A stretch of DNA of 64,000 nucleotides from Bilabrum cf. latius. Lineage: Eukaryota. The translations under genes were made by a program, and so were the position numbers. Under the pieces are notes generated by a model. It was given only the letters and a program-made list of their open reading frames with translations, ran no database searches and was not told the origin of the DNA. The DNA lies in contig OZ237752.1 of the NCBI GenBank assembly GCA_965178125.1, positions 124,001 to 188,000 of the forward strand. The letters are read 5' to 3'. Shown in pieces: positions 1 to 64,000 of the stretch (the stretch's first letter is position 1; each line of letters begins with the position of its first letter).

Positions 1-2
1 TG

Positions 3-3000
3 GCCAAAGAGTGGGTGCTGACCCTCGCCTGCCTGCAGGAGGTCAAGAGAAGGGCAAGGGCGGAATCATACCAGATCTCTCAAATCGCGCAGACTGCAAA
101 GAGGAGGGGGGCAGCGCAGGCGCAGGCGCACGGTGTCAGCGGGGGCAGGGGTGGATCATCCCCACCCGGGGCGGGCGGTGCGGTACCTGCACCCGTGGCG
201 TTCGAGCGGAAACGTCGGCACACATCCACGGCGAAGAACCTTGCGCTGGCCGGACTCACCTCTGCTGCCAAGAAGGCGGCCGAGGCATTCGCCGCGCCCG
301 GCAGCAGTGCTGCTGCTGGTGCAGGGGGAGACAAGGGCAAGGGCGGCGATGCATCGCAGGCAAAGGGGAAGAGCGGGGGTCTGTCCGCGGGGAAGAAGAA
401 GAGGGTCTGGAACGCGCTGCGAGACAGGCTGCGGCAGGTCGCGCCGAGGAAGGACAGCGGCAGCGAGGACGTCGAGTCCACCTATTCCAAGGGATCTCTC
501 GAGTCGTCTGGCACGGGGTTTATGGGCAGGCCTCGCGGGGGCAGCGCGCTGGCCGGCTCTGCCACGACCGCCACCGGCACGGGGGGATCGAGCGGGACGA
601 GCGGACCCAGCGCCTCTGCTCCTGGCACCAGCAGCACAGGCGGCAAGGGCGGTACATCGGGCCCGCAGTAGGCGGCGGCGGGAGCCACTGCATCCAGCGG
701 GACCTCCAGCGCCAGTGCCTCCAGCGGCGTGTCATCGAAGGAGATCCCGTGCAGACCCCTGCAGCCTCCACCGGAAGGACAGGGAGAGGGACAGGGGCAG
801 CCCAAGCAGGGCACGCTGGGCCCCGTACCCGCCGCGCCTGCAGATGCCCCGCCCCCTGCGGCATCGGGCAATCTTCATGTGAACGTGCCCGAGATCCGCC
901 GGAGGTCTGACGGGAGCGTCGGTTCCCTGCAGCCCCTGACTCCCGCCCTCACGATGCTGGACGGCGCCGTGGACGACTCACCCAGGGCCAGACACGCAAG
1001 GAAGCTGTCGGGCATGCTGGGGACCCCCAGCCCGGTGAGGAAGAGCGCGGGGGACAGGGACAGGTCGGGCTCTCGCGACGGGAAGCCCCCTGCGTACATG
1101 CTGCCTCCCACGCTCCGTGACGAGCACAGGTCCAGCTCCGAGGGACAGAAGCAGCAGGGGCAGACCGGCCTGCTGCACCCCGGCACCGGCACCGGCACCG
1201 GCACGGACGCGGACGGTACGACCTCCGTGGAATTGCGTCGGGCGAGCGGGTCCGGGATCAAAGACTCGAGGCTGCGGGAGCCGATCCGCTCCCCCTCGGC
1301 ACCGACCGTGGAGCAGACCACACCCACGGTCGGTGCCGGCGGCCAGGATTCTGACAGTGCATCCGCCTCCTCCTCGACGGGGGAACAAGGGCAAGGGCAA
1401 GGGGTGGCGGAGAATGCCCAGCGGCGCAGCAGCAACGGCAGCGTCAGGCGCAGCGTGGCTGGCTCGCCCATGGGTCCGGCGCGCTCGACGGGGACGGTGA
1501 GCGGAGGAGGAGGAGGAGGAGGAGAGGATGCCCCCCACACCCCGAGGGACGTAGGTAATCGGCAGCGGCTGTCCAGCCAGGGGTCCGCGGGCAGCGGGGG
1601 CAGGCCTCCCTTGCAGCAGCAGCATAATCAGCAATAGGAAGAGCAGGACATCATGGCCATGAAGAGACGGGCCTCGGCTGCCCGGCGGAGGCACCGGCAC
1701 GGGATAATCGGGCGAGGGAACACAACGCCCATGCGGATCCGGCCCCGGGACATCGTGCGGCACATCGAAGCCCTGGAAAAGAAGAACAGACAGGAGGCGG
1801 ACCGCATGAAGCGGCTCGCGGACCACGGGCACCACCATGCAGTGCACCATAAGAAGGGCAGGGGCGCCGGCAGGGCGGCGGCTGGAGAAGGGGGTGGATC
1901 CGCGACGGGCAGTTCTTCGTCGCACTCGTCACACCCGGGGGCCGCCGCCCAGCCCGGCAAGCCGGGGCCCCGCGCGAGCCGCGTGCGCCGGCAGACGATG
2001 CGCTGGATGCAGAGCGGGCTCATGTCTAGGGACGTGGCGCAGCGGCTGGTGGAGCAGGCGCACGATGAGGACGACGAAGCGAGGGCGGCTGCGGCTGCGC
2101 GGCGGGCGCAGAGGGCGGCGGGCTCGCAGGCGGGGTCTTCGGGCTCGGGCACCGGGTCCTCCACGCCTAGATCGGGCGCAGACGGCCGGGTGGTGGTGAC
2201 CCTGGCGGACGCGACCGGTGTGGGGTCGTCTTCTGGTGGCAGCTACCTGGGCCCGGGCGACGTTGAGTTCGGCGAGGGAGACCAGTACGGGGTGCCAGGG
2301 GACCGGAGCTCACTCACCGGCGTGCATGAGGCCAAGGAGGGGGAGGGGTCAGAGGGGGGCGATGGGTACTCGGACAGCGGGGAGGACGAGGACGACGATC
2401 TGCTGGCCGGGATGTTCGCCCCACTGCCCTCGGAGCGCGACGTGGAAGCGGACCTCTCCACCCCCATGGTGGAGGGGGCAGACCCTTTGGGAGGCATGGA
2501 CCAGGAAGGCCTGGCGGAGGCGGACAAAGGGGCGCCCAGTGGACAGTGGGTGCGCCGCAGGAGGCCAGAGGACATCGCGAGGAGACTGCCGACCGTGGAG
2601 GCTTGCAATGCAATGCTTAAGGTGTATGCTACGAGGGGCCAGGCGGAGAGCGCCGCTGCTTTCTTGGCCTGCATGGAGGAGCAGGGGCCCCGCAAGGCGC
2701 CCAATGCGGAGAGCTGGGCGCACCTGATCCGCGCCCTGGGCAGCTCCGGCCTTCTGGTGGATGCAGAGGAGATCTTCGAGGAGCTCGGTCAGGACAAGGG
2801 CAGCGGGCTGCCGCCGCCGGAGTGCAGGTGGGCGATGCTCGAGGTGTGGGCCAAGCACGGCCTCGTGGACAGGGCGCGGACTCTCCTGGACGCGGTGCGG
2901 GCGGGAGGAGAGATCCCCCCGCAGGGGCAGTGGGCGCTTCTTGTGCGGGCTGCGGGGGCCGCGGGGGACCCCGAAGGCGTGGAGGCGGCGCTGGCCGAGT

Positions 3001-6000
3001 CTGTGAGCGGGGCGGGGGGCGAGGCACCCAGTCCCGCAGTGCTGGCAGCATTCGTCGAGGCATGCGCAGACGCCGGCGATTTGGCGAGGGCGGAGGGTGC
3101 AGTGGAGGCGATGCTGCTGAGGGGGCACCAGCAGCAGGAGGGTCGCAAGCACGCCCAGCTGGGTCTCATGGGCCCCGGGGCCGGTGTGGGGATCTCCATG
3201 GGCGCGGGTGGCGCCTCCCCCGGGGGCATCTCGTCCTCCTCCTCGTCTGCCTCGTCGTTTGGCGGGGGCCCAGTGGTGGCGGCGCTGGCCCGCGAGGCGG
3301 CCATGACAGAGGCGGCCCGGGTGTTTGGTGACTCGGACGAAAGCAGCTGGGTGTCGGAGGAGCGGGCGGAGAGCGTGGTGCGTGGCGCCGCCGACGGAAC
3401 CGAGGACCCGCTGGAGGTGGAGGAGCGCCGTGCGGCACGCAAACGCGCGGTGGATGCGCGGCGCCGGTCCGCGGAACGCGTGCTCCCCGTCGTGGCCCAC
3501 GCCCCCACCCCCGCCGTGTTTGCCGCTCTGATCCGAGGGTACGGCAAGGCCGGGCGCCTGCGCGCAGCCAGGCGCGTGTTCTCGCTGCTCCGAGCCACGG
3601 CGGAGAGGGCCGCCATGGAGGCTGCTGCGGCGGCGCGGCGCCGAGGGCTCGGGGCAGCCGACGCGGAGGAGGCCTCCATGAGCGTGCGGCGTCGGAGCGT
3701 GTCGCTGGACGCCTACAACGCGATGGTTGGCGCGCTGGCAGAGGCCGCCATGCCGGAGCAGGCCAAGGCCGTGCTGCTCGAGATGGACGCGGCCGGCATG
3801 CGGCCCGACGCGCGGACGTACTCGCTGCTCATCTCCGCGTACGGACGGCGCGGCCGCACGCGGGAGGCCAGGGCGATCTTCCAGCTAGCGCAGGAAGGGG
3901 AGCTGGCAGACCACGTGGAGACGGTGAACGCGGTGCTGGGGGCGTACAGGGAGGCGGACGGGGTCTCCTCCGCGACTTCCTTCGGCTCTGGTCCCTTGGC
4001 TGCTTCGCAGGTCACGCCCGTGGCTGGCAGCAGCAGCGCCGCGTCCGGCGGCGCTGCTGCTGGTGCAGGCTCGCACAGCAGGGGCAGGAGCAGCGGTTCC
4101 TGGGGCCTTGACGAGGACGGCCTGGAGATGCCCGGGTCTGCTGCCGCTGCGGTGGGAGGCGTAGGCAGTAGCCAGATCGGTGGGCCCCGCCGGAGCTCTG
4201 CACTGGCCGAGGCAGCGTACAGGGGCATGACTCGGCGAACAGAGGGCGGCATGCCACTGCAGCCGGACGCAGGCACGTTTGCCGCCTTGCTGCGGGCCGC
4301 GGTGGACAGGGAGCCCATGGATCGCAAGAGCGCGCTCGCCGGCGTGCTGCGGCGCATGCGGGAGCGCAAGGTGGCCCCCTTGGAGGGAATGTACGCCGCA
4401 CTGCTGGGGAACAGCGGTCAGGGCGGGGACGGGGCGGAGGGGGGCTCCTCCGGGTCGTCTGGCGGCAGCGCGGGCGGCGCTGGGGCTGGGGCCGGCGGCG
4501 GTGCTGGAAGGGGCGGACGGGGACCAGCCGTCGTGCCTGACGTGGCCGACGCGCTTGCTGAGCTGGTGGAGCGCGATGCGCTCGGGGTGTGGCGGCGCAC
4601 GCGCGTGGCCGAATCTCTGTGCGGCGCGTTCGTGTCGGCGGGACGGCTTGCAGACGCGGAGGCGGTGATGGGCTCTCTGGCCCAGGAGGCGGACGCTGGG
4701 TGGGCGCGCTGGGCCGAGGGTGCGGGCAGGGCGGCAAGGGAGACCATCGCTGCAGGGGGTGTGGCGGACGGGGAACAGGGTGGGGCGGATGGGTAGGAAG
4801 GGGGCGCCCAGGGGCGCATATCTAGGATGCAGCTGCGCGCTGCCGAGCTTCGGGCCGATGCAGCGGTGTGGGCGCGCAAGGCGGCGGCGGTTGCCAGGTG
4901 CTTTGGGCGTCTGGTGGTGCAGCGGGCGCAATCGGGTGACACCGACGCGGCCGCGGGCCTGCGACGAAAGCTGCTTGAATCTGGGTCTGTGCGCCGGCTG
5001 CTGTCCCTTGTGCAGAGGGCCTTCCCCTGTCTGATCGTCGAGCACTTCCTGCTGGAAGGGTCACTCGGGGGCGGGCGGGCCAGGGACACAGAGGCGAGGG
5101 GGGCCGCCCGGGCGCTGGCCAGCCGCCTCCTGCCAGGGCCGGACGAGCTGCGCGCAGCAGAAGACGCGCTGGACTGGGTGGACGCGGCCGACATGGCTCT
5201 GGTGGTGGCCTTTGGAGCAGCACGCAGGCTGGCGGAATCATGTGCGGCCCTGCAGTGCGTGCTCCGGAGAAGGAGCAGGTACGGCCGGGCGGTCGCGGAG
5301 AGGCAGGCCCGCCGGGATGCGGGAGACCTGCCTCCCGTCTAGGCGGAGGCCGTGCGGGTGCATCGCACTGCGGAGCTGGAGCGGGCCGGGCTCGAGGAGG
5401 AGGGGGTCGAGCAGCAGCGATTCAGCCTGCGCGATGACGAATCCGCCGCCGATGGATCCAACCCGTTCCTGCAAGGCATCCAAGCCGAAGACGGGGACGA
5501 CATCGGGGGAGTCTGGGCGGCTGCGGGCGCCCCGGGTGCGCGCGGGGGTCGTTCGGGCGGCCCGATGGCACTCGGCGGGGTGTCGTCGCGCACGATAGAC
5601 CCCTTAGCCGACCTGCCGAGCACTAGCACGCTCTGGGGCTGGCGGTTTGCCCGCACCATGGTGGAGCGGCAGCGGCGGGTGGCCGAGGCGGAAGCGGAGG
5701 AGAACAGCCGGGGAGGACAAGGGCAGCGGCAGCCGAGGCCAATCAGGCTTCAGAGCCCGCTGGGCGCAGGCAGCGTGCTGGGGATGTCCAGGTCGGCAAC
5801 GTTCAGCGGCTTCACCATAGACGGGGTGTCGGCAGGCGGCATTGGAACGCGGGAACGAGGCGCTGCCTACAGCGCTGCATCCGTGGCAGTGGTAGGAGGC
5901 AGGCGGGGACCGGTGCAGTGGGCCCTGGGTTTGCTCGTGGGCTAGAGCCAGGGGCTGGTCTGGAGCGGCGGGTCACCATCGCATGCCGCGGGTCACGATG

Positions 6001-9000
6001 CGCAGTTCACCACGTCAGCATCCGCCGACCTCTCCCGGGAATGTGCCGACGACGCCGCGCCGCTCCTGGCCCTGGCCGCCGGTGTGGCTCTGGCGGGCGC
6101 GGGGCCGGATGCGGCTGCCCGCGCCCTGCTTGGGCTCGCCACGCGGGAAGGCGTCCTCCCCACCCCCGCAGTCGTGGTGCAGCTGCTGCGTGCAGCCGTG
6201 GCCGCTGGCCGCGGCGACGAGTCGCTCCGCTTGCTGCGGGCCTGTCGCACGGTGGCCGCCGGGCTGGGCGCCACGCCTGCGCAGGAGCAGGCTCTGGCAC
6301 ACTCGCCCGAGGTGGCCGCGGCGTGCCTCCGGGCTTTAGGCTCGGAGGGCAGGGCCGGCGACCTCGTGCGGTTCTGGGAGTCCCACAAGTAGCACCGCAG
6401 GGCCTCCGCCGCGAGAGCCAGGGAACAAGGGCAGGGTGCATCGCAGGGCGGCGGGGCCGGCGGCATGCGGGCGGCTGGAGCCTTTGCAGCCGAGGACGAG
6501 GACGATGGCAGGGAGGCAGCGAGCACGAGCACGGCCAGCGTGCGGCCCCCGCCCCGGTCTCCGAGAGGTGTGCCGCATCCGGCGGTCGCCCTTGCGATGC
6601 TGCAGGCACTGCCGCAGTGCATTGCACCCGCAACCACCGATGCCTCAGGCCCCTCCCCCTCCCCCTCCTCCCCCTCCCACCCCCGGCAAGGCATCCAGGC
6701 AGGAGACGCCCTGGCCCTCGCCCGCGCATGCGTGCGGGAGCAGGCCAACTGTCCCGTTGTTCCCTATGCCCCCGGGGTCCTGGAACTGTGTTCCCTGAGT
6801 GAGGCACTGCTGGCGACCGGGGCTCCGAGGTCTGCCCGAGCTCTCCTGCGCCAGCTGCTGGCCAGCGTGTGCGGGGAGGCGTTCGGGCCCACCAGGCTGC
6901 GGCAGGAGGACGAGGAGGACCAGCGGAAGGGGAGGCTGCCGGGAGAGGCCGGTGGCAGCGGCGGTGCCATAGCGGAAGAGGCGGACGCCCTGCCTGCCTG
7001 CGACAAGAAGGACGGGCTGCTGTTCGGTGCCGAGGACCCTGTGGGTGCATCGCACGCCTCTGTGGAGCAAGCCAGGCTGCTGGTGGAGCTGACCAGGGTG
7101 CTGCCGCCCGGGTCTGCGGGTGTGGTGCTAGGTGCAGGCGCGGACGCGAAGAGGCAGGGGTAGTTGCGGGCAGCGCGAGGGGAAGACGATTCGCAGCTGG
7201 GCGCCGTGGCTGCACTGGCGGCGGGTCGGGGCCTGCTGGGATCCGCTGCGGGCGCTACTCTCCGGGCGATGGCCGGTGCAGCACCTCCGCTGGACGCCCC
7301 CTCCTTTTGTTCCCTGGCTTTGGCGCTGGGGCGCGCCGGTCTCTCCCACGAGATCGGCGGGCTGGTGGAGGCGGCTGAGGGCACGGGGTCCCCGGCGCTG
7401 GGCACCGCCAACGGGACGGCTCAGGCGGTGAGCATGGGGCTGGCTGCGGCGGGGGCCGCGGAGGCGTCGGCAGCCGTGTGGAGCGACTCTCGATTCGAGG
7501 TGGACCCGGCTGTTGTTCCCCGGGCGGCGTCGAGCGACCCGCTGTGCCCCGCGCTGCGGCAGGCCCTCAGGGAGGCAATGGACGCGAGGCGGAGGAGGGG
7601 CGAGTCCACCGCTGGATTGGCAGGGCATGACGAGGGCGGGGGGGCGGGGTCGATTAGTGCAAGGGGTGGCATGGGCAGATCCAGGGGCAGGGGCAGGGGC
7701 AACTCGGTGCGTCAATCCCTCGAGTCCCTCGCGCGAGACGGGGGGGAGGAAGAGGACGAGGAGGAGGACGAGGGCAAGCTGGGCCTGGGCCGGCCCTCCT
7801 CTTCGTCCTCGTCTTCCTAGGGACTGGCCGCGGTGGCAGGGGACCTTATGACGGCCGCGGGGGCGCAGCGGTCCACCCTAGACGGTCCCAGGGGCGCCGC
7901 CTCCGTCGCCACGTCAGCGCACGTGGTGGCCCTGTGTTCCGCGGGGTTCGTGCACGCGGCAGTGTACACGGCCGAGGTGGCCTGCGCCCGCCGTCTGAGG
8001 CTGCTGTCCGACGCCGTGACGGCGCTGCTGGAGGCGTGCTGTTCCCTGGGCCGGGAAAAGATGCGGGAGGGAAGCCGGTTCGGACCCGGGGCCGCACTCG
8101 TCACACAGTCTCAGGACAGGGACGGGTCAGCCCCGGGGTCGAAACCGCCATCCCTCGCCTCCTCCCCCCCAACCTCCTCCTCCTCCGCGGGGGGGGGCTT
8201 GGCCACGTCACTTGGGGCCACTGCCAGCGGCGCCGCCCTCGCCCTCCTGACGGGTGCTGCGCTGCCTCCCATGCCAGCGGAGACGCGGGAGCTCCTGAAG
8301 CAGGCGAGGGCGAGAGGCAGCGCTGGCTCGTCCCTTCCTCACTCTCGGTCCACCAGCCGCTCCTCATCCCCCGGGAGCCTGGCCGTGTCCACGGTGGCAG
8401 GGGGTGCGGGCGCCGTGTCAGGCGGCGGTGGGGGGGTGGACCCCGGCAGCCTGACAGACGCGCTGGCGATGGATACTCTCCGCGGCACCCGACTCGCCTT
8501 GCCCGAGGGTGTTTGTCTGCTCGCGCGGCTAGAGCACGTGGGGGCCGGCCAGCGGACGCTGGGGTGGGGCCCCCGGCCGCGGGATGTGAGGGTGCTGGTG
8601 CAGCTGTACGGGATGGCAGGGGAGGTGCAGGCGGCCGAGAGCCTGGCGTTCGCGGCGCTGGACGGCTGCAGCTCCGGCGCGGCTGCGGTGCGGCCCGGTG
8701 GAGAGGCGAGGCGGAGGCTTAGGGCGAGGCACGCCGCGGCACTGGCTGCGGATGCAGCGGCCTCTGTAGCGATGCGCCCGGGCTCCGCGCCGGGGCCAGA
8801 GTCGGGTGGGTCGGGCATGCGGGAGGAGGTTCCCAGGGGCCACCTGGTGCACATGTCGGGGGGTCGGACACGTGCCCTGCGGCGGGACTCGCTGGGATTG
8901 CACGCCAGTGCCGATGAGGTGGCCTGGGTGTGGGGCACGGGCGCCGCTTCGGGTGCCGGAGTGGGGGCTGCGTCAGGATCTGGGTCGCACTTTGCGCCAG

Positions 9001-12000
9001 AGGCAGGTGCTGCCGCGGATGCCGCGTTCATGGAACGCGCGCGCGGCGAAGGTCTCGAAGAGTCCGTGGCTGTGGCGGCTGATGCCAGGGCCGAGGCAGC
9101 TGGGCTGGCGGCGGACGGCGGCATGCTCTTCGGCAAGCCGCATGCCGCGCGGATGGCGCACCGGGAGGTGCTGGGGCTAGGGGATGGCGAGGACGATGAG
9201 GCAGAGGACAGGGAACTACAACAACGAGGAGGAGAAGAGAAGCCGCTCGCCCTGACGGATGGGTCGCCCGGGTCCTCCCAAGCCTTCTATCTCCCATTGA
9301 TGGAGGCAGGAGACCTGCGAGGAGAGAAGGAGCAGTCGCAGGGGGGGGCTTTCGTGCCAGCAACCATGAGCCCCACGAGGCAACAGCAATAGCAATAGCG
9401 GCGATCAAAATTGGAATCTGGAGCACGGAGCCGTCGGGCCGCAGACTCGAGCGCCGCCTCTGCACTTCGCGCGCTGGCCAACGCCGCGCTCACCCCCGGC
9501 CACGGGGTCGCGCCCTCGTCCCAAGCAGCCGCCCGAGAGGTCGCTGCCGGCTTGCTGGGCGCGCTGGTGAGTGCCTGGGCCTGCGCCCCCAGGTCTGCGT
9601 ACTCTGCCGGTAGCGTATCCCGGCTCTCACTGGAGGTGGTGCGGGCTGCCGCGGGTGATCTCGACTTAGGCGACCTTCCCTGGGTAGAGGCCGGCTGTCG
9701 GCAGGTCGAGTGGAGGCTGCAGCGGCACGGGCTGGTTCTGGACCCGCCCTTGCCCCGGGGCGTTCAGATGGCGCGGGTGCTGGCGGCTGGCTCCTCCGAG
9801 GCTGCTGCGGACGCGGGTGGTCTCCCCGCAGGGGACATCAGGCACCTCTTGCCGGTGGCGGGTAGCACCGGCACAGGGGCGGGTTCCCTTGTACTGAGGG
9901 CGCGGGCCGCCGGGCTGCTCTTCGCGGCTGCCGAGGATCTGCGGTGCGATCAGCGGCTGCGAGGGTGCGTGATGGCACTGGCCAGCAAAGAAGCCGCCAC
10001 CGCTGCCTAGAAACGGACCACGGAGACGCAGCAGCAGCAAGGCGGTGCCGGCAAGCCTCGGTCAGCGTTCGCGTCCAAGTTCAGCCCTTCCTCTCCCGAG
10101 AGGCGCGTGGCATTCACCGAGGACCGGTCAGGGAACAACGCGCCGGGGAACAACGAGGGCGCCCAGGATGCCGCGCGCAGGGCTAGGGCCGCGGCGGGCC
10201 ACGCCCGCGCCCCCTTGCCCGGCTCGCTCCCTGCCGCTAGCCTCGTGTCCGTCCTGGCCTCCGTGGGCATCGGCACGACGCTGGCGCCGCCCAGGTGCAG
10301 CGAAGCGCCCAGGCGGAGGGCAGCAGCCCAGGCCTACCTGGCCTCGTTGCCCAAGCGGGACCCAGGTCCGCCTTCCGAGCTCTCAGGGGGTACTGGGGGA
10401 GGAGGTGTGGGGGCTGGTGGGTCGTACACGGATGCCGATGAGGTGCTGGGTCTGGCCGCGGGGATGCCAGGCGTGCCTGCGCTGCGGCACGTCGGTGGTG
10501 GTGGTGGCGACAGCAGGGGCGGTGCGGGTGGAGTGGGTGTGAATGTGCCGCGCGGGGGAGGACGCGATGGTCCTGCGTGGACTGCGCTTCTTGGCGACGA
10601 CGGGCAGGGTGAGCTGCCTGCCGGCCTCTTCTTCGGGGAACAGCGACCAGGAGGAGGGGAGGAGGAGGAGAAAGAGGAGGGGCGGCGGGCGGATCGGATC
10701 AGGCGCGCCGCGGGAGGGGCCGGCGGGGGGGAGGGAGGGGACGCGGAGCGGCAGCTCGCCGCGAGTAGTATTGGCTCCGGGTCTGTGGGCGGGCGCCCCG
10801 ACGTGGAGGGGAGGGCGAGGAGCCTCCGGGCGAAGCTGCTCGAGGCCGGGTCCGTTGTGACCGAGCCTGACGTCAGGGCTGTGGAGGCCGAGGTTATGGC
10901 GCTGGCGCTAGAGGGAGACGACCTGCGGAAGCTGCGGAACGAGGCGGAAGCGGAACTGCGGCGGGTCGCGCAGGCCCTTGAAGAGGAGGAAGAGGATCTC
11001 CGGGACGAGGACGGCATGGCCGGGGGCACCACAGCGGCGGCATCGCTCGAGGCGGCAGCGGCCATGGTGGGGTCGTCCACTCGTCACACCGTGGATGACG
11101 GGGTAGGGAGTGGTAGAGGTTCCCCGGACCGCCACTCGTCACACCCCGCAGCCGACGGAGTGCTCCTGCTCGCCCGCAGGACGAGGGCGCTTCGGGCGGC
11201 TCTGACCGACTTGGAGACCCAGGGCACGGCGGCCCGGGAGGCCTGGACCGAGGGGCAGACGGCGGGGTTCCATCCCGCGGACAGGCCCGCCAACCGGCTC
11301 GTGCCGTCGGGCGCCGGAGAAGGTGGACTCGGAGCCGAGGAAGACGATGTTGTGGTGCCCGTGTCAGCGGCGGTGGGGTCCTTCGAGCGGTGGGCGGAGC
11401 ACTCGCAGGCGATCGAGGAGGAGGAGCAGGCCGCCAGGGAACAACTGGCGGACGTGTCTCGCCGCATCGCTGCACTGGAGCTGGCCCAGGACGAGGCCCT
11501 CAGGAGGTTCCGCATAATGCAGCGGCGCGGCGCCCACGAGGCGCGGGAGGCCTCCAGGCGGGCCCGGGGGCTAGACTCGACTCCCGGGGAGGACCAGGGG
11601 CAGGGGCGTGCCGGCCAGGAGGGGTAGTCCGGCTCAGGAAACAAGGCCCCGGAGGTGGCCGGGCTGCTGTCCACGGCGGCCGCTGCCGCAGCCCCACCCC
11701 AGGATGCGATGCGTGCCCCCGGGGGCCGGGGGGGCAGTGACCCCACCGGGGGGACGCAGGGAGACGGGCGGGAGGAAGAGAACCCCCCCCATGGCCGGGG
11801 TCCCGCGGGCGTGGATGAGGCGCTGCTGCCGCGAGCCCTCGTGGCGGCTTTGGGCTCCGAGTCGTCGCTCCCCGCCGTGGTGCTGTCGCCGTTCTCTGCC
11901 GCAGTGGTGCGCGCACAGACCGCCCGGGCCGTGGCGGCGGAGCGCTCAAGACTGCTGGCCTCTCGGCTGGCGGCGCAGCGCCGGTTCGAGGCGGCCCTGG

Positions 12001-14537: not shown

Positions 14538-15510
14538 TGCGGGATGCCTCGAGCTGACGTGTCCTTTGCAATTGATTGAAACCCGCAGTTCTTTCAATGA
14601 TCGTTTGCTTGTACCATTTCGATGGGAAGGGTTCAAGCAGCCGCGACAGCCAAGCTAGGCATCCGCTGGCCCGACTGTACACGCGACCCGCTGATTCTTG
14701 CTACGGTATTTTATCGATCTAGAGGCTTGCGTGGATGGTGTATATCAAATGCCATCATACCAATGATGTCTAGCTGCCAGGGTATGGCACCACGCTTCGC
14801 TCCAGTCCTTTGTGCGTTTCTCCAGGCTTCAGGACTCCGGCGAACCTTCGTTTCTGGCTCTCCAGCGGAACCGCTTCAACGAATCACTTTGTTCACTCGA
14901 TTCCAAGCGAATCTTCAGTAAAATGTGAGCGCTGCCGATTGATTGCGGTTATATAAAGTCTTTGTGCGGATTCCAATGCCTAGAGTCTGCGTTATTGCCG
15001 TAGTTTGTCGGTCTTGCCGACTGTTCTTGCGCGGCTGTTCGCTGCGATATGGCCAATTTGAATACGTGGAGGCTTAGTGAAATTGTTATTTAGCACATTT
15101 TGATAAGCACTTTGTGGTTTTGGGCGCTGTTTGGAAGAAAAAGTTGGAGGAGTGCTCCAGCTCCAGTTCCTTGAGACTTGTCGTAAAAACGACGTCCGCC
15201 CGATTCGGCCGAGGCCCGTGCGATGTGCAAGGCATGCAATTGATGGTAGCCATAGCTCTATGTTGTATGAATCATGTTTAACTTATTATGCGAGTAAAAA
15301 TCGTGTGCGTGGCCACAAAATTGTAGCTATTGCCGGTGTTCTTGTGATGGACACTGCGCTTCTACTTCAACAGAGGAACTTTGCAGTATAGCTCGGGCAT
15401 GCCGCGGGCACTCGTGATGAAATGCTATAATTAAGCTATTACGATTCCAATATTGATGTATCACTGAATAATTTCCTCGCAGACCCAATCTTTCGGCCTC
15501 GTTGCATAGG

Positions 15511-20393: not shown

Positions 20394-20478
20394 CCAGCCG
20401 AGTGAACGTGCTCGTAGCAGCGGTAATATTTGCTTCTAGAGATAAATCAATCAACAGAAGGATGCTTCGCCGCCCCTT

Positions 20479-49120: not shown

Positions 49121-49547
49121 ATTTTGAGGGTGAGGTAACCGCGTAAGGTGGAACGAGGATGAGCGACTTACGTGCGGAAGATGAAGACAAAATTGCATGG
49201 TTTGTAGATTGCTTTTACCAACTATCCAAGGGTGCTCGGAAGTACACGATATAGATTATGATCATGTATACCCTATACACACGCCATTCACAGCTCCTCG
49301 TCATTCCATGGCCGGACGTACTGGGGGATCCATTCCGCCGGGCATGGCGCCGCGCTTTCTTGTGGTTCCGCCTGCAGCCCCCTAGATCTGGATCTAGAGT
49401 TCTCAACCCGGTACTGCAAAATTGATGATCGACCCGGAGTGGGTCCAACTTCAACTTGGATTGCCCGCCGCCGCCCGGACGAGCTCGAGCCCTGTGTGTA
49501 GCTCATATTGGCTCAAGCAATCTGATCTGATCTGCAGCAAGCAAGAA

Positions 49548-51764: not shown

Positions 51765-51926
51765 CAAAGTTGATCTGTGGTCTAGTTGGGCAACCGAATC
51801 CGCTCGCACCCGTTGGTGGTTTGGGCCGCAGCGGTGACGAGTGGGTGCACTCAACACGATCCAAAAATGCGATAGCTGGGTGCCACGCACTGCACACATT
51901 AGAATTCGAGCCTCTTCCCCCAGTCC

Positions 51927-53805
<1,879 letters not shown>

Positions 53806-53979
53806 GCCTGCAAGTGTCGCCGCTGTGAGCGCGATTGCCTTTGCTGCTCGTTGGAGCAAGGTTGCAACCGCTCGGTCGAAGGCGGAGTATCGGGGTGCGA
53901 AAGAGCAAACTGTGGTACGTTTCATGCATATCAGACATTCTCCGAAACTGTGTGTGCAGCACACGCCCTGCCCTGCGTC

Positions 53980-56727
53980 TCAACGACGCCTCCCGCCCGA
54001 GGAGGAGGAGGACGAGGACGAGGAGGCCGTGGCCCCCGCGCTCGAGGAGGGGGAGCGGCCCCTGCTCCTGCTCCTCCGCTTGGCAGACCGCCTGCGGGCC
54101 GACTGCATGGCCCGCTGCCTCTCCGCATCTGCCTCCTCGTCATCGCTCAGGTCACCCATCGCCGCCGCCCCCCGGCTCGCCCCCTGGATCGACCCATCCT
54201 GCAGCAGGTCCTCCCCCGCCCCCGAGAGAGAGGCCGACATGCCCCCCATCCCAGGCATGGACAGCCCATTCTCCTCCTCGTCCAAGCCGCCGTCATCCAT
54301 CGCCATTTGAGACTCGAGCGCATCCGCCGCCGCATCGCCCAGAGCGTCCCCTGCCCCGCTTCGGAGAGCCTCTGCCCCCGCCCTGTCATCCTCGTCCTCG
54401 TCCTCGTCGTCCTCGCCGGCCCTGCGACGGGCAGCGGCGGCGCTGCTCCGCACAGACCTCGACCGCCTGGATCGGCTGCCCACGCCCTCCTCGTCTTCGT
54501 CCTCGTCCTCATCTTCATCCTCGTCATCCTCGGCGCGCATGGTCCGCACCGCAGACTTCTTGCCCTGGCCCTTGCCCTTCGTGTTCTTCTTCTTCTTCTT
54601 GCTGCTGGCACCCTCAGACGCGGCGCCAGCCCCACGCCCGGACCACCCCCCATCCAGCCCACCAGACTACGACCCGGACCCGGACCCACCCGCACTCGTC
54701 ACGCCGCTCCACCGCGCCAAGTCCCGGAAGGCAGCCACCCTCGCGGTCGCGTCCCTGCCCCCCAGGCCCCCGTCCAGCAGCAGCCTCAGCCCGCAGGCCA
54801 GGGCCCAGTCCTCCGCGCCAGCGGCGTCCTCTGCCCGGATGAAGGCACGGTCCCCACTCGTCACACCGAGCCCGCTCCCGTCCGCGCAGCACTGGTCGAA
54901 GAAGTTGAGGACCACCTTGAGCACCCCCTTGTCCTTCAAGAACCGGAGGTACACCGGCACGGCCAGCAGCAGGGACTGGAGCCGGGCCCGCCGCCGCCTG
55001 CCGCCCGCACCCACCACCTCCTCACCATCCTCATCCTCCTCCTCCTCCTCCGCACCGAATGCGTTGTCTTCGTCATCCTTGCCCTTGCCCTTTTCCTTGC
55101 CCTTGCTTGGATCCACCACCCGCAGCCCATCCCTCACCAGCCTCTGCACCAGCCTCAAGACCGCAAGCCTCCTCTCCTCCGCCTGCCTCTTGCCGCCCTC
55201 GCCCCCACCCCTCGCCTGAGTAAAGAAGCCGCCCAGCGCCTGCACGAACGTCTTGGCAAGGTCCGCGATCCGGAGGCGGGCGCCTTGCGCGGCCTCCCGC
55301 GCCGCAGCGGCCTCCGCCGCCGCAGCCGGCCGCTCCTCGAGCGCCGCAGCATCCGCCTCCGCCGCCTCGTCCTCCAGGTCAGCGGCGTGCTCGGCGAGCG
55401 GAGCCAGGGCGAGGTAGTGCGCCTTCAGGAGCTGCTCCGCGTTGCGGTTCCGCAGGCGCCGCAGGACGGCCCTGGCCATGTGGTGCGGAACTTCCGAACC
55501 GGGTCGGATGGGCGCCGCGCCCGAGACGAGGGCCCCGCTGACCAGCTGGGGAACAGGCACGCGCAGGAGCACAGGGAGGGGCACGGCGGCCAGCTGCCGG
55601 GCGCACCTTGCGTCCCCCGCCGCCGCCGATGCGCTGGAGGTCACGTCTCCCTCTGCCAGGCGGAGCCTCGCCTTGGACCCTTTGGGGGCGATGGCTGCCT
55701 GCCCCACCACCACGCTGGCAAGGTGCCCTGCGGCGAGGCTGAAGGACGGCAGAGCGCCCACGGACACTGCGAGGGACCGCGCGTGCTCAGCCTCCCCGTC
55801 CTCGTCCTCCCCTCCCACGCCCGCCGCCAGCCCGGCCGCGGCAGCCGACCGCACCGCCCTTGTGGCGCCCATGAGCTCGGGGCTCACGTCTTCCAGAAGG
55901 AGAGCGGCGAAGGCCGCCGCCGGCCCCGCCCGCGGTGCCGCCCCGGCCAGCGCCAGAACGGGTGCCGCCGCGCCGTCTGGGAAGTCCTCGGCTACCTCTG
56001 CCAGCGCCTCGTCCTGCAGTGAGAAGCACACCTCCGTGCTCTCGCCAGAGACCACGCCCGCGTACCCGTCGTGCGAGGCGCGCAAGTCCTTGGTCAGCAC
56101 GCCCACCAGCTCCTTCACCCTGCCGGAGCGGGCCGCGGTGCCGACGGCCCGCTGCGCCCGCTGCATCCTCCTGATCCTGTGCCTGCACCTGCGCATGATG
56201 GCGCGCGCGCAGTCCTGGGCCAGCTGCGAACCGGCCGCCAGGACGGCTTCTGCGTGGGCCGTGGGTGACTTGCCCTCGGGAGACCCTGCCCTCAGCATCG
56301 AGGCTAGCAGCTCGGTGGCAGTGGTCAACGCCTCTGCTTCCTGCTCCTCGGCGTGCTCCGAGCTGGTGGCAGGAGACCCCGAGGCCCGGATAGCCCCGTC
56401 GCTCCCGCTCACGGCGGACCGGAGAGCGCCCCGGATGGCCAGGGCGCCTACCTGCGAGGACAGCGCGGCTGCCTCTGCGCGCCGGCAGGACGGCGCGCAC
56501 CTGCGCGCGAAATCGCACGCCAGCTGCTGCTCCGCGTCGCTGGGTGCGTAGGCAACGGGCTCTAGCACGGTCCCTCGAAGGCTGGTGGCGCCGCAGGCGG
56601 ACGCGAGGCATGCGAGGGCCTCCACGCCCGCGCGCTGCAGCTCCATGGCCACCGTGCGCGCGCGCAGTCCACCGAGAGGGGTGCGGGCGGGTGCCATGTG
56701 CCGCAGGGGAGGCAGGGCGCCCGCCGA

Positions 56728-56758
<31 letters not shown>

Positions 56759-59700
56759 CTAGAGGCTCCTGCGGGCCTGGCACCGGCGCCCAGGGCCCGC
56801 TCCGGTCGGGTGGCAGCGGCGGCCGACCCGACGCGGGCCAGCGCGGCGCGCGCCCTGAGCGCCCTCAGGATGCCTGTGCGCTGAGAGGGCGGCAGACCGT
56901 AGGCCAGCGTGGCCTGTGGCGCCCTGAGTCCCAGGAAGGCCACGGAGGAGACGCCGATGAGGGGCGCGTGGGGGCTCCACGCGCCCAGCTGGCGCAGTGC
57001 CTCAGCCGTGTGCCTCCGAGCACTCGCCGCATCGTTGTTCCTCGCGCTCGCCTTGGCCTTCTCCACCTGAGTGGCCGCCTCGATGGCAGAGGTCCTCACT
57101 GCGCCCCACTGGGCCGAGTCGCCGATGGCCGCGAAGCCGTTGGTCTCCGCGTCCTCGCCGCCCTGCAGCATGCCCTGCCCGCCTGCGCCGCCTTGCGCCG
57201 CACCGGCCTTGTCGTACGCCACCTGCGCACCAGCCTGCAGCCCGCGCACCTGCCACGACAGCAGACTGCCCAGCAGCTCCATGGCCGTGCTCACGGTGGC
57301 GCCCACAGGCACGCCACACTCGGTGGCGGCCCGCAGCTGCGCCCACCCGCCGGCCTGACCGCGGCTCCCTGCAGCGCGCACCGCAGCCAGACCCTCCTCG
57401 GACACGCCCGACAGCGCCCCACCGCCCACTGCGAGGCCGGTGGCCGCAATGGCGCCGCGGGCCGGTGCAACCGCCGCGTCGGTCCCCATACGCTGCAGCA
57501 CCACGGCCCGCAGCAGGTTCACCCCGGCCCCATGCCTGCCTGCGATCCCTTGCAGTGCGGCTTCGCAGTCCTCTTCGTCAGCCGAGGAGGAGGAAGAAGA
57601 AGACACACCGGTCCGGGCCCGAGCACCCTCCGCAGCCGCCTGCGGGTCCTCCTCTGCGAAAGCAGCGCACAGGGCCGCGAGATCGAAGGCCCTGCCCAGG
57701 GCATTGAGCCTCCGCAAAGCGGCCACCACGTGCAGCTCGGCCTCGGCCCACTCCTTCCCCGCACTCGCCTCCTCGTCCGCAGCCTAAGAGGCGGAAACTG
57801 CGCCGCCATCCGCCGCGTCCTCGGCAGCTGCGCCCGCGCGGGCAGCGAGCTCCGAGGCATCTGCGGCGGCCTGCGCAAGCTCCTTGAGCGCAGCCTCGGC
57901 GGCCTCTGCTGCGGCTGCGCGGGCCTGCCTGCGGTTCGCCTTCGAGGCTCCTCCAGTGGCCGAGGAAGAGGACGCAGCAGATGCCTTGGACTTGCTTGAG
58001 CCCCGCCCGCCCTTGCCTCCGCGCTTGCCCCTGCGGCCAGACGCCCCCTCTTCATCGTCGTCCTCGTCATCTGCTTCCCCGTCCTCTTCGTCTTCGTCGT
58101 CGTCTGCCATCTTGGCAGCGGACCCGCTCGAGGAGGCAGCGCTGCCGTCCACCCGCACGAGGTCCCCATCGGCCGTGACACCAGCAGCCGCCCCGCTGCC
58201 GCCCGCCAGGTGCCTCAGCAGTGCCGCTGCGGCCTGCAGCACGTCGTCGTCCGCATGCCTGTGCACTGCCTCCGTGACCTCCCTGCACACAGCATCGAAG
58301 GCAGAGCCCAGGCCCGGGCCCCTGGGGCCGTACACCTCTGGATCCACCGCCAGCCCCGCCCGCAGGAGCTGTGCCATGACCAGAGCGTCCTCCCCGTGCC
58401 GCTGCAGGAGCCTCGGAAGCGCGGCGCCCAGGGCTACGGACATGGACCGCCTATCAGCGCGGCCCCTGTCCCTCCAGCTCTCCTCAAAGGGGGAGTCCTC
58501 CGCGGTCGGGACGCTGTCCAGCGCCTCCGTCCGCGCAGCTTCGGCACCGAGATCGTCTGCCTTGGCGCCCGCGCCCCACGCCTGGGCCGATCGTGCCTGC
58601 AGATCCAGCGCCTTGCGCGTGTCCTTGCCCACCCCGGCCGCGGACTTCTGCTGCTGCACCTCCTTGCGCGTCTCCGTGACCATCTTGGACACGTCATCCG
58701 CGAGCTCTCTGCGCAGCACCTCCCGCGCAGACTCGGCGGAGCCCCCCATCGTGGCGATCGCAGCAGAGGAAGAGGTGCCATCCACGAGAAGAGCGCCCGC
58801 AGCAGCGGCATCGTCGCCCTCGCCCAGCGGCCGACGAACCACCGAGCCGTCTCCCCTGCGACCACCGCTCCCCGCCGATCCTGCTCCTCCCACGGCGGTC
58901 AGACCGGCCTCACCCCGGACACCCTCACCAGCGTCCGCCCTGGCGTGAGCCGCGGGGTCCGATGCGGTGCCCAGCAGCCCAGCCGCAGCCTCTGCGCACG
59001 CTCGCAGCAGCCTCGCTGCAGTGCCCGTGAGGTCACTGGCGAGCACTGGGGTGACGGCCTCGGGCGACAGCGAGGCAGGGACCAGCCTCGCCAGCTCCTC
59101 GTTGCCCTCCAGCAGCCTCTGCATCACCTCGCGCTGCGCTTCGTGCAGCTCCTCCTATGTGGGCTCCTCGCCCTCGGCTGGCTCATCCTCCTCTTCCTCG
59201 TCCTCGTCCTCCATGGCGCTAGCGCCCTTCTTTCCCTTGCCCTTCTGCTTCTGCTGCTTGCGCGCGGTCACAGCCTCGAGAGCCTCCTCTGCTGCCTGCT
59301 GCTGGATGGCCTGCAGCTGCTCCAGGTGCTCCTCAGTGCACGGGTCATCTTCGAGCAGCGCCACCAGGGCGTCCCAGTCGCACAGGCACTCGGCTCCGGG
59401 GCGGCCCCACAGCGAGCCCACGAAGAACGAGGTGGGCTCCAGGTCGGTCACGCACGGAGCGAGGGCGCGGTCCCTCAGCCTCTGCACCGCAGCCAGCGGG
59501 AGAGCCCTGGCCATCCGCTTGGCGCAACGGTCCGTGATCCTCCTCTCGATCCAGGGCCCGTCGGCCGACAGCCGCTCCAGCACAGGCACCTTATCGCCGG
59601 CATCTCCGGCATCCGCAGCGACCGGAGGATCCTCGGGCTCCAGGTGGCCATCCAGCACCCCAGCGGCTGCCAGCTCGCCCTCTGTGGCAGCGATCCTGGC

Positions 59701-62180
59701 GCCCAGGGCGGCACGGCCCGCCGCCACCTTGCAGAGGGCCTGCAGGTGATCGGCGTACGTCGACGTGCCCTCCTCGATGCCCGCACCCGCCGCCTCGGCT
59801 TCCTGGGCCAGCTTACCGGAGATGAGAGCGTCTGCCAGGCTGGGCGGCGCGTCCGCCTCTGCGGTCCTGAGGGCCTCGTCGGCCTCTGCGTCGTCGAAGT
59901 AAAGCACGGTGCCGGCGCTGGCGTACTGCAGCAGGGACGCATCCATCTGGCGGGCGACGTCCTCCTTGGGCGCGTCTGCCACCGCGGCTGCCTTCTGCAG
60001 TATGCTGTGCAGCTGGGAGCGCGCGTGCAGCTGCACGGCGGCCATGGCAGATGCCGCGCCGGACTGCCCCTTGCTTCCCCCTTTCGCCTACTTCTTGCCC
60101 TTGCTCCTGCCCTTGGCACCACCCGATGCTCCCGCCTCGCCCTCCTCCTCGGCCCGGTCCCTCGCGTCCTCCAGGTTATCCGAGAACGAGTCCATGAGGT
60201 CAAGCAGGAACCCAGCGGCCGCGGACCTGACCCCGGGGTGCGGGCTGCTCATCATGGTTCGGATCATCAGGTGCTCGTCGGACGCCTCCAGCGCCTGCTC
60301 CGTCTCTAGCATCCTGTGCGTGGCGTCCACGGCCGCGCGGGCCACCTCGTCGTCCGCGTCCGCGCAGCTGCCCACGATTCGCCTCCCGAACCGCCGCATG
60401 AACGCATCAAGTCTCTGCACGACGTCTGGTTGCGAGAGCATGGAAGACACCAGGTGCAGCGACCAGTACCTCACGCAGGCTGCGCGGTCGTACAGGCACC
60501 AGCCCGCGTACTTGATCACCTGCGTGGCAGTGAACACGTCGGGCGCGGCGGCCACCAGCGGACCCAGGGCCCGGATGGATTCCGCCCTCACGTGCGGGTC
60601 CACGTCCTTGTGCTTGGCCACGAGGATGTCGCGGTGCACCTCGTTCGCCAGGAGGTCGCCCAACTCGTCCGCACGACGTGCCAGGCGGGCCGCCTCGGCC
60701 TTGGCGGCTCCACCGGTGGATTCCCTGCGCGCGCGGCGCTGCGCGTCCCCCGCCAGACGGAGCAGCTCCTGCCTCGTGAGCGCCAGCCCCTCCGCCACAG
60801 CAGCCACCATCACCGTGGCTGCCTGCCTCATCGGCCTGCTGCTGCCCAGGGCAAGGGCGCCCATCCAGTCCAGGAGGAACGTCGCCAGGTGCGGCGCCAG
60901 CTCCTCCTCCTCCTCCTCGTCTCCTCCCTTGCCGCCAGCAGCCCCTCCGCCGCCTCCTCCCTTGAGTGGCTCCAGCAGCATCTCGGCCCCCTGTTCCCCA
61001 GCGGCACACACGGCCGCTCGCAGGAACTCCTGCGCCCGGTCGCGGATCTCGCCCCGCACGGCCAGCTGCTTGCGGGCCCGCTGGGCGCTCCGCACCTGGG
61101 CGTGGAGCCGGACGAGGGCACGAGCCTGGGAGGGCTCGGCTGCAGCGGCCCCCACTAGCATGACAAAGTCTGCGTCCTGTCTGTTCTGCATGCTCCCTGC
61201 CAGCGTGGTCTCGTCCGTGCCTGCGTCCACCTCGTCCTGGTCCGGCTCGGGGACGCCCTCCGGTACCATCTGCAGCACGGATTCCGCGTGCCAGTCGAGC
61301 ATGTCCACGTCCTGAGGCAGCGGCAGCGCTGCGTGGTTCTCGTCCGCGCCCCCCAGCACGGAGATCGCCTCTGCCATTGCACGCAGTGCCTCCTGCCTCG
61401 TATCTTTGTTCCTCAGGTGCCTAAGCCAGAAGGTCACCGTAGTCTTGAGGGGGGAGCCCGGGCTCGAGATGGCGTCTGCGAGGCGGAGGGGTGGGAGGTG
61501 TGGGAGGGGGGATGGTTGGGCAGCGCATGCATTGGAAGTGAAGACGCAGGGGTTAGAGGAGGTTAGAGGACCGTGCATGTAGTTAGCAGCAGCACCAGCA
61601 GCAGCCGGTCAAGCAGCATGCGTGGCACGCATGGGCCCATCTCCTCGTATGCCGGTCCGCTCACCGATGATTTGCTGCCCGCTGATGCCATCGTCAGCCG
61701 TGGGCCTGGCCTTGCGACCCCTCCCCACGGCTGCCTTCTTCTTGGCGCCGCCGCGGGCACTCGCGGATGCCGGCCGCTGGCGCTTCCTCGACTTGCTCGC
61801 TCCTCCACTGGCGGACGAGGATCCGGTCCGCTTGCCCGAGCGGCCGCGGCCCGCGCGACGCTGCGCAAGGACGGCGTCCATTTCGGCCTGTGCCCCATCG
61901 TCGTCGCTGCTGTCTGAATCGGCCTCCTCCTCGGCCGCGGACGACTCATCGTCCTCGTCGCGAGCGGCACCTTCAGCTTCCGAATCGCTCCCGTTCTCGG
62001 CGTAGGAAACCCCTCTTCCGACCGATGACCTTCCAGACTTGCGTCGTTTGGACTGCGCCAAAGTACTACGAGGTTTCGCGTCTGGAGAGGCCCCGGAGCT
62101 TGCGGCAGAACGCCTCGGCTTGCGAGCCGCCTTGGGAGGCGTAGCCGACGGGTCGACGGGCTCTTCAGCCTCTTGAGCAC
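53980..62180 (-). CDS. Cohesin subunit SA/STAG/Scc3-like protein, about 2650 aa or more; start unresolved
   Basis: STAG/SCD-like RPMRQAAT and LVAKHKDVDPHVRAESIRALG..PDVF..IKYAGWCLYDRAACVR. One frame 53980-61475 broken only by TAG at 60088, 59155, 57784 and 54667. GT-AG intron 61476-61664; candidate acceptor near 62181; TGA stop. Confidence 0.8.
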
Positions 62181-62762
62181 TGCAAAGCAATAGAAAAAGT
62201 ATAGAATATCATATTAAGCTAAAATAACGAGCCTCTCGCAGGATGATAGGGGCTTCCGGCACGAAACACCTCCCAAGCAATTGCCTCGAACTCAAATCGG
62301 AGGCCGCCGCACCCCTTTCCGCCAAGATGCCCACGCATCATGCAAATATAACGGTCATTCAACAATTAATGCAACGTAAACATTCAATACGTACGGCTCT
62401 TTTAGGCAATGAAGCAATAATTGCGGCACAGGCTGGACTGAAACACTGCAATGCATCGCTACGCCGAGATTTCGGGCAGAACGGGCGGTTTTGCTGGAAT
62501 AATGCGCCTCTCACAGGCTTGAGCTTGCTTGAACTACACTCATTCGTTCTGGCTCCCGCTTCGAGCGGGAAGATCTGCGCCTGGATGGCATGGTTGACGC
62601 TGATTATAGTGCGCCTCGGTCGTCGATTGGGGTGTGAAAATGCCTCACATCGATCGGGGCTGCGACCAATCCGAAGATCACTTGGGCAGGTGCGGCGGCG
62701 AGTCTGTACGGTGTCTATTTCCTTATAGAGGTTGATTTCAGAGCAGATGCAGTCGCTGCTCG

Positions 62763-64000
62763 GTGGAAAACCAACAAAACGACGGGCTCATGGCCAGGGA
62801 TGGGGCAGTGGCGGCATCCAAGTTGCCCCCACCAGGATCCCAGGGCCGGGAGCAATGTCTTCCCATGATACGACCGCAATCCTGGGAAGTAGTAGGCCTA
62901 GAAGTGTCGCAACCATCGCCAGGGCAGCGTTCCAGACAGAGCCTGCCACGGCCCGCCACCCAACTTCCCGGCAGTGAGAGTACCCGAACGAACATGTTGC
63001 TTCGCCGAATGAACGATGAATTCGCCATGTTTCGTGCCCTTAAACTCCAATCTATTCTAGTTGTTGCGTGTTTTATGGTTTTGCGCCAGCGCAGGTCTTT
63101 CTGGGCGGATGTCCAGGCACTGCAGCTTGCACAGCAGGCCAAGCACAGAGTCGTTCAGCACGGCCGCGCGGAAAGCAGATCCAATGGGAACCGTGGCAGA
63201 CCACCATCGAATGACAATACCTATACAAGCCGTAGCGGTGCTTCCTCCGACCACATTGAGCCCGTTCAGACGCTCTGGACATCCCCAAGCTTTCGTGCGG
63301 ACGGAGATGGCGGTGGAGCCTTGCCGAGCAGAGGCGAGGACTGGAAAGACTCTCCCATTTCGTAGGCTCTAAAACCATGGGGCGTTGGTGCGTCGTGGCA
63401 TGCCGAAGAGACGAGCGGAGGGGCTGCTCCACCGGCGGGTGCCTCGGGATTCGCGGGGCTCACGGGCGAGCACGCCGTGCTGGCGCAGGTGCTCGCGGGG
63501 AAACCAGCGGGGGCGGCGGCCGCGTCGGGTGGGCGGGCATCGGGGCGGTCATCCCGCAGCAGTTCCCCGGGGGGCTATCCCCGGGGTGCGTTGGGGTCGA
63601 CGTCGTCACCCCGCAGGGGCCACCCCCCGGTTGGGGACAGCAGCGGGCTGAAGCGGGGCTACAGCCGCAACACCCTCAAGTGGGAGGCGCAGCTGGTCGC
63701 AAATGACCGGGACCGCAACGACCGTGCGGCCCAGGAGCGATTCGCGGGCTGGACCAGCGGTGGTGCAAGGCGGGCTGCAGCCAGGGCAGCGGAGCGAGCA
63801 GCCCGCCGAGAGGAGGCGAGCAGGCGGAACGGGCCGGAGGAGAGCAGGCGGACGATGTCCAAGCGAACCTTCTCTAGCCGCAAGCTGGCGGGGCTGGTGG
63901 GTGGAACCCAGGGTGGTGCCGGGGACAACCCCTGGGGGTCACCCCTGGGGGTACCGCCCCGGGGTGGGGAACAACCCCAGGCCAAGACCTCCGCCCGGCG
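62763..64000 (+). CDS. Hypothetical protein, 3'-partial; start uncertain
   Basis: The frame of ORF 62763-63365 continues through TAG 63363 with no further stop to the window end, in GC-rich coding-like sequence. Confidence 0.45.

Follow-up and report, generated by a model that had tools for sequence, protein, structure and literature searches.

Throughout the window analysed here, a stretch of 64,000 nucleotides (nt) from contig OZ237752.1 (positions 124,001 to 188,000, assembly GCA_965178125.1, deposited as Bilabrum cf. latius; all coordinates below are those of the window), the triplet TAG is strongly supported as a sense codon. The explanation that best fits its genes, to which a probability of roughly 0.8 can be given, is that UAG specifies an amino acid, most probably glutamine (Gln, Q), that UGA is the usual stop and UAA still a stop, and that the DNA belongs to a stramenopile related to Cafeteria. 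The window has a G+C content of 58–73% and carries closely packed eukaryotic nuclear genes on both strands. Gene identities were taken from Pfam scans of the long frames, which named a giant protein with PPR repeats, glutamate 5-kinase (G5K; AA_kinase and PUA domains), MLH1, a calcineurin-like phosphoesterase, a secreted beta-helix protein, an EF-hand protein, a DDE_1 (pogo/Tc5-type) transposase, a GH20 hexosaminidase, a TBCC/XRP2-type protein, katanin p60 (AAA, lid and Vps4_C) and the cohesin subunit SCC3/STAG; six long frames gave no significant family match in these scans.

Under the standard code the longest stop-to-stop open reading frame (ORF) of the window reaches 1052 amino acids (aa), and reading TAG as sense opens frames of 4844, 2542, 1305 and 1166 aa. 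Reading TAA as sense brings no gain (the longest ORF stays at 1052 aa), and reading TGA as sense opens no frame beyond 1294 aa, even though this is the most frequent stop triplet of the window. A raw count gave 66 in-frame TAG codons in 16 TAG-open frames, beyond which 7 more were found in G5K exon 1 (1), katanin exon 1 (3), the MLH1 exon-1 frame (2) and the EF-hand gene (1). About 9 of these 73 stand upstream of likely starts (5 ahead of the beta-helix signal peptide, 2 in MLH1, 1 in the transposase and 1 in a 660-aa ORF), and TAG codons upstream of probable start codons were left out of the trimmed count. The trimmed likely-coding set (21 segments from 17 genes, 17,632 codons) contains 64 TAG, 0 TAA and 0 TGA; the segments were picked as TAA/TGA-free frames, and the real test is that frames of such length exist at all. 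Read in their two remaining frames, these segments hold 737 stop triplets, of which 172 (23%) are TAG, and from this off-frame share the probability that 64 of 64 interruptions are TAG is about 1e-40. TAG use also tracks local base composition, which is the behaviour expected of a codon: it is more frequent where the G+C content at third codon positions (GC3) is lower and CAA is higher relative to CAG. Examples at low GC3 are katanin exon 1, with 3 TAG, 2 CAA and 0 CAG, and the DDE_1 transposase, with 9 TAG. Taken site by site, the GC3 of the surroundings of the TAG codons does not discriminate, because GC1 is high as well. The G+C content drops to 58–59% in 36001–48000, against 64–73% elsewhere in the window, and the transposase gene (38206–40632), lying in the least GC-rich part, has the densest TAG of the window (10 in 808 codons).

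Domains and alignments to homologues continue across the TAG positions. A single MLH1 frame holds the ATPase part, the DNA_mis_repair domain (aa 310–404) and the Mlh1_C domain (aa 822–872) together with TAG at aa 257, 464, 554, 625, 666 and 735, and the Cafeteria orthologue aligns with it over the entire large exon. The SCD (334–407) and HEAT (1051–1136) regions of SCC3 flank TAG at aa 507 and 818, the G5K kinase exon gives one unbroken alignment to solved G5Ks (query 13–171) with TAG at aa 93, and the alignment of katanin exon 1 to the MIT domain 2rpa runs across three TAG codons. Additionally, a second copy of the transposase was found on one contig of another public assembly as two protein entries, P0121 (97% identity) and P0122 (92% identity), which end exactly at TAG 289 and TAG 387 of the window's transposase, indicating that these TAG codons are conserved between diverged copies. 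A protein search for shorter transposase fragments brought up only two, both found before.

Contigs of four other public runs (X5 to X8) were compared with positions 38001–58000 of the window. A junction of 53509 with 53634 is present in contigs of X5, X7 and X8 (from two studies), and one of 44720 with 44814 in contigs of X5 and X8; a shift of one base turns both skipped pieces into GT..AG introns on the strand of the genes, at 53511–53634 (124 nt) and 44722–44814 (93 nt). The X6 contig runs unspliced through the first of these, the katanin intron. These joints are most simply read as a sign of cDNA in X5, X7 and X8, although the label 'RNA?' of these runs is a guess and that of X5 is 'probably DNA'; a search for sequencing runs showed no RNA holder. 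The compared contig pieces cover 14 of the 23 TAG codons in 38001–58000 with no difference from the window listed at any of them (the remaining 9, all in the transposase, lie outside the listed pieces), and those covered include all four katanin TAG codons and three of a 682-aa gene, on contigs that have the splice joint. Splicing out or editing of the TAG segments had been named in the first-pass annotation as an outcome that would overturn the sense reading; the intron-less contigs still carry the TAG codons unchanged, and on this comparison these appear to be neither artefacts nor removed from the message. The X5 and X7 contigs also carry a variant copy of the transposase, with 11 differences in 40379–40574.

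UAA appears to remain a stop and not to have become a second Gln codon, and UGA is the usual terminator. The ratio of CAA to CAG in the trimmed coding set is 120:549, and if TAA:TAG followed it 14.0 in-frame TAA would be expected, where none was seen (P = 8e-7); the three longest ORFs gain nothing when TAA is made sense on top of TAG. Of the 16 main frames, 14 terminate at TGA and 2 at TAA, and in MLH1 and katanin TGA comes directly after a C-terminus that homology fixes (...FERC and ...EFGAT, respectively).

The first-pass annotation had proposed that UAG is sense across the whole window, and this is borne out by the ORF lengths, by the domains that span TAG positions, by the intron-less contigs and by the count of 64/0/0. 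Its estimate of about 65 in-frame TAG in 16–17 genes compares with a trimmed recount of 64 in 17 genes, and its figures for single genes (MLH1 6, katanin p60 4, STAG/Scc3 4 and glutamate 5-kinase 2) were exact. It had also stated that no resolved exon has an internal TAA or TGA, which holds over all 17,632 codons, and that domains resume after TAG, which was seen in MLH1, katanin p60, glutamate 5-kinase and SCC3/STAG. Its further claim that UAG alone was reassigned and UAA kept as a stop has gained statistical support from the 0 in-frame TAA against 14 expected and from the 2 of 16 ORFs that end in TAA.

The genes and frames of the window are the following, with in-frame TAG codons given by position.

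3–14537, + strand: giant ORF of 4844 aa with PPR repeats, open at the 5' end of the window and ending in TGA; 12 TAG (669, 1635, 4794, 5340, 5943, 6390, 7161, 7818, 9390, 9396, 10008, 11625).
15481–18010, + strand: glutamate 5-kinase, ending in TGA; AA_kinase exon 15481–15999 with TAG 15757–15759, PUA exon about 16202–18010 with TAG 17777–17779.
18060–20393, + strand: 777-aa ORF of no known family; 4 TAG (18285, 18441, 18597, 19575).
20479–23979, - strand: 1166-aa ORF, low-complexity and coiled-coil-like, of no known family, ending in TAA; 5 TAG (23731, 23503, 23500, 22180, 21946).
24191–28231, - strand: MLH1 in three exon blocks (27818–28231 frame; 25179–27806; 24191–25345 frame), ending ...FERC and then TGA; 6 TAG in the large exon (27036, 26415, 26145, 25932, 25809, 25602).
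30287–31981, - strand: calcineurin-like phosphoesterase (Metallophos); 4 N-terminal TAG (31919, 31904, 31748, 31595), which would fall in the leader if a later Met is the start.
32217–34616, - strand: secreted right-handed beta-helix protein; no TAG past the signal-peptide Met, the 5 TAG of the longer frame (34620–35054) being upstream.
34979–36670, - strand: 563-aa ORF that begins with MGCGTSS and gives a weak hint of NYN; 4 TAG (36407, 35537, 35423, 35387).
37020–38006, + strand: EF-hand protein resembling calcyphosin and RIB57; 1 TAG (37083–37085).
38206–40632, + strand: DDE_1 (pogo/Tc5-type) transposase ORF of 808 aa; 10 TAG, 9 of them after Met27 (38212, 38377, 38560, 38572, 39070, 39364, 39424, 39850, 39856, 40141).
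40929–42911, + strand: secreted 660-aa ORF without a family match; 2 coding TAG (41799, 42126) and 1 upstream (40947).
43160–45208, - strand: secreted 682-aa ORF without a family match; 3 TAG (44306, 43394, 43322) and a 93-nt GT..AG intron at 44722–44814.
47423–49120, + strand: GH20 beta-hexosaminidase, ending in TGA; no TAG.
50221–51483, - strand: TBCC/XRP2-type domain protein, the frame ending in TAA; 3 TAG (51409, 51124, 51022).
51927–53805, - strand: katanin p60, ending ...EFGAT and then TGA; exon 1 53635–53805 with TAG 53770, 53764 and 53719, intron 53511–53634 (124 nt, GTGAGC..TCGCAG), exon 2 51927–53510 with TAG 53448.
53980–61608, - strand: SCC3/STAG cohesin subunit, 2542-aa ORF ending in TGA; 4 TAG (60088, 59155, 57784, 54667).
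62736–63998, + strand: 421-aa ORF running off the end of the window; 1 TAG (63363).

The giant frame is mainly low-complexity sequence rich in Ala, Gly and Ser, with a small PPR block at aa 1237–1315 and a long, coiled-coil-like C-terminal part. The TBCC/XRP2-type protein carries the motif KKLSF(K/R)EALALK three times ahead of its domain and is closer to XRP2 than to TBCC among solved structures; in the PDB search only this domain aligned, the TAG sites lying outside the alignment. PDB sequence searches returned no match for the two secreted ORFs or the ORF starting MGCG. Scans of the 64 kb found no tRNA gene and no member of any Rfam family, and likewise no rRNA gene; eRF1 is not among the genes of the window.

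With TAG taken as sense, comparison with homologues makes Gln the residue that it probably specifies, and leucine (Leu) would be the main alternative. Few TAG sites are informative because most lie in low-complexity or unconserved parts; all six in MLH1 fall in inserts or unconserved linker and are uninformative on the residue. The G5K TAG (aa 93) falls on the Q of the motif 'a-v-g-Q', a Q that 5 of 5 displayed solved enzymes from 3 species have (the structure search matched 8 distinct sequences, for which 5 alignments were displayed). The katanin TAG at aa 12 corresponds to Q in 6 of 6 nearest homologues shown, both Cafeteria entries included, and to Q in 5 of all 31 aligned residues (E<=1e-3), with D, N or E in more distant homologues. 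The transposase TAG at aa 387 is Q in P0125, the nearest read-through fragment (104 aa, 50% identity), and the EF-hand TAG meets Q in calcyphosin 3e3r. TAG codons also occur inside Q runs (QQQ-TAG-Q-TAG-RR, NQQ-TAG-EEQ), and the rate of Q neighbours is 13.6% for TAG sites, 12.6% for Q itself and 10.8% for the next residue, E.

Several observations weigh against this assignment. The lean towards Q among the neighbours of TAG cannot be told from E and L within the sampling error (n=66) and is not significant; in the ciliary proteins RIB22 and RIB57 the EF-hand TAG stands opposite A and D; the three MLH1 TAG codons with a counterpart in the Cafeteria alignment face T, A and A, each within unconserved linker; and the log-odds summed over 10 alignable TAG columns are nearly flat, Q gaining no more than +0.5 nats. 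The points that would favour a sense codon for some other residue (e.g., Leu, Glu, Ser or Tyr) are the katanin TAG at aa 29, where the 6 nearest homologues all have L or I and 33 of 37 aligned ones have one of L, I, V, M and F, the transposase TAG at aa 407, where 37 of 78 aligned residues are M (26) or I (11), and the summed log-odds once the G5K site is removed, where M, N and Q are tied and Q is no longer singled out. Such a residue is nevertheless unlikely, given Gln at the G5K site, at katanin aa 12 and at transposase aa 387, the TAG codons within Q runs, and summed log-odds of -5.7 nats for L. The earlier proposal of 'most likely Gln' thus stands in so far as Gln is the best-supported residue, with Q at three sites, and is tempered by the one site that has Leu/Ile and by columns of remote homologues that are nearly uninformative. 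Pyrrolysine was dropped as a candidate on general grounds, since the TAG codons are scattered in low-complexity parts of ordinary genes.

A second alternative is a UAG of dual meaning, sense inside genes and stop near the 3' end of the mRNA, as in Condylostoma, karyorelicts and Blastocrithidia. The G5K TAG at 17777 would suit it, as it lies 64 codons past the PUA domain in a frame that continues 76 codons to TGA, and so would the in-frame TAG found within 20 codons after the TGA in 4 of 16 ORFs. On the other hand, GC3 is 0.90 in the 101-codon window centred on this G5K TAG, which is coding-like, the homology-fixed ends of MLH1 and katanin need no TAG, and 16 of 16 ORF ends are TGA or TAA, few of them fixed by homology. 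Dual meaning is therefore improbable, although with a sample of only 16 ORF ends UAG may also end some genes. The idea that the TAG codons go untranslated, as mutations in pseudogenes, as errors of sequencing or deamination (CAG to TAG), as parts of small introns or as sites restored to CAG by RNA editing, is close to refuted: C-to-T change of CAG does yield TAG and most of the TAG codons stand in poorly conserved, low-complexity parts, but the same process should also leave TAA at former CAA codons (0 found, 14 expected) and TGA at former CGA codons (0 found), the TAG codons lie in housekeeping genes on both strands in frames that continue for thousands of codons, and contigs from three other studies, intron-less ones included, have the same letters at the 14 covered positions.

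Regarding the source, protein comparisons suggest, with moderate confidence, that the window is nuclear DNA from a heterotrophic stramenopile rich in GC, to which the bicosoecid Cafeteria is the nearest relative with a name. The best named match of MLH1 is Cafeteria roenbergensis (56% identity in the best local segment, 43% in the pairwise alignment), and the likeness reaches linker regions that are unconserved elsewhere. An MLH1 tree of 35 rows, with 34 of 120 listed matches as homologues (the named taxa and a few unnamed matches), grouped the window with Cafeteria and one long MMETSP row with a support of 87 in the Shimodaira–Hasegawa-like approximate likelihood ratio test. For katanin, the Cafeteria proteins show 66% identity over the AAA part, and they belong to the 6 nearest N-termini. 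This placement is weakened by its moderate tree support and by the deviant amino-acid composition of both rows, which makes an artificial attraction possible. An earlier impression of a bicosoecid has therefore proved reasonable, with Cafeteria the nearest named MLH1 and among the nearest katanins, and at this moderate support it is not proven. The top-scoring MLH1 match, P0001 (EukProt), was rejected as nearest relative because it has the N-terminal half twice in tandem and is less similar than Cafeteria; the tandem half looks like an artefact of assembly or prediction.

The MLH1 (1052 aa) and katanin (627 aa) of Cafeteria are full length in the NCBI annotation, which suggests that the standard code is retained in Cafeteria and that recoding would have followed the split from it. 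A metagenome scan with katanin gave 9 loci, none from a close relative, and a scan of prokaryote genome contigs with the G5K exon gave no relative. One of the metagenome contigs, the unrelated L001 (1–3644, GC 54%, katanin 50–56% identical), has a TAG-only sense signal too: its longest ORF is 310 aa with the standard code, against 681 and 445 aa with TAG as sense and no real gain with TAA or TGA as sense, and 6 TAG lie in the 681-aa ORF besides those in the katanin frames. In another, L007 (GC 41%), the katanin alignments have 6 TAA and 6 TAG in frame and 0 TGA, and it looks like an organism in which both UAA and UAG (UAR) are sense, such as a ciliate.

TAG stands for Gln in NCBI translation table 15. 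This table translates the genes of the window without breaks, and its use here would be in a nuclear stramenopile genome. A name for the TAG=Gln code is given for phages in PMC9523058. The nuclear splits of UAG from UAA that are set out in PMC11687900 include Leu in an uncultured rhizarian, Gln in Iotanema spirale, Ser in Scotinosphaera, Gln in Protocruzia tuzeti, UAA=Lys with UAG=Glu in an uncultured oligohymenophorean ciliate (Oligohymenophorea sp.), and Gln twice and also Leu in phyllopharyngean ciliates. A close likeness is to the nuclear code of Iotanema spirale, with UAG=Gln and both UAA and UGA as stops (PMC11687900): there too UAG alone has changed its meaning and UAA still terminates, and the likely residue of the window is likewise Gln. 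However, Iotanema belongs to the unrelated supergroup Metamonada, whereas the window has 58–73% GC and genes that mostly end in TGA, and Gln is drawn here from few sites. In Protocruzia tuzeti and two phyllopharyngean lineages UAG, and not UAA, is likewise given as Gln, so that the variant arose repeatedly and independently (PMC11687900); these are ciliates, whereas the window is nearest to the stramenopile Cafeteria and has ordinary GT..AG introns. The rhizarian, Scotinosphaera and Oligohymenophorea sp. are listed with UAG uncoupled from UAA, as here, for other amino acids (PMC11687900, PMC10553269); the informative sites of the window favour Gln over these, with Leu as the main alternative. 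Codes with UAR=Gln, ascribed to many ciliates, Hexamita, Streblomastix, ulvophytes and Amoeboaphelidium (PMC11687900), also read a stop as Gln (table 6 type), and the window differs from them by its 0 in-frame TAA against 14 expected. The table 6 pattern was rejected for the window, with 0 TAA in 17,632 codons and no gain in ORF length when TAA is sense.

No stramenopile is named among the cases of split UAG and UAA in the Discussion of PMC11687900. In the full-text literature searched, outside of which lie subscription journals and supplements, no paper came up that describes nuclear reassignment of UAG for any stramenopile; the stramenopile literature found was mitochondrial (Cafileria, Blastocystis, Labyrinthulea) or unrelated. 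The window thus probably represents the known variant with UAG=Gln and UAA as a stop in a new, unrelated lineage. Whether it is also the first nuclear stop-codon reassignment in a stramenopile is a closer call, and the balance tips modestly towards it: an independent, UAG-only change to sense (probably Gln) in a Cafeteria-like, very GC-rich flagellate with UGA-ending genes, after the split from Cafeteria.

As for the mechanism, UAG may be decoded by a tRNA with the anticodon CUA, one change away from tRNA-Gln(CUG); such a tRNA would read UAG only, leaving UAA untouched. With up to 12 TAG per ORF the decoding must be efficient, so that eRF1 would presumably have lost recognition of UAG and no longer compete there. 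The change itself may have come about by codon capture, in which UAG would first have fallen out of use as a common stop, the genome being GC-rich and its genes mostly UGA-ending, and then been taken over; since 14 of 16 frames end in TGA, UAG may indeed have been rare as a stop before its capture.

If this is true, the case would fit codon capture under GC pressure rather than the AT pressure that is usually invoked. Departures from the nuclear code are few in the accounts cited above, and separate meanings for UAG and UAA are fewer still; the window would add an extra independent case, in a free-living stramenopile and in a GC-rich setting unlike that of most recoded lineages. Comparing a recoded lineage with the sequenced Cafeteria, apparently of standard code, could show the changes in tRNA-Gln and eRF1. 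Annotation of this genome with the standard code would cut most of its proteins into pieces, and P0121 and P0122 are instances of such splitting already present in a public protein set.

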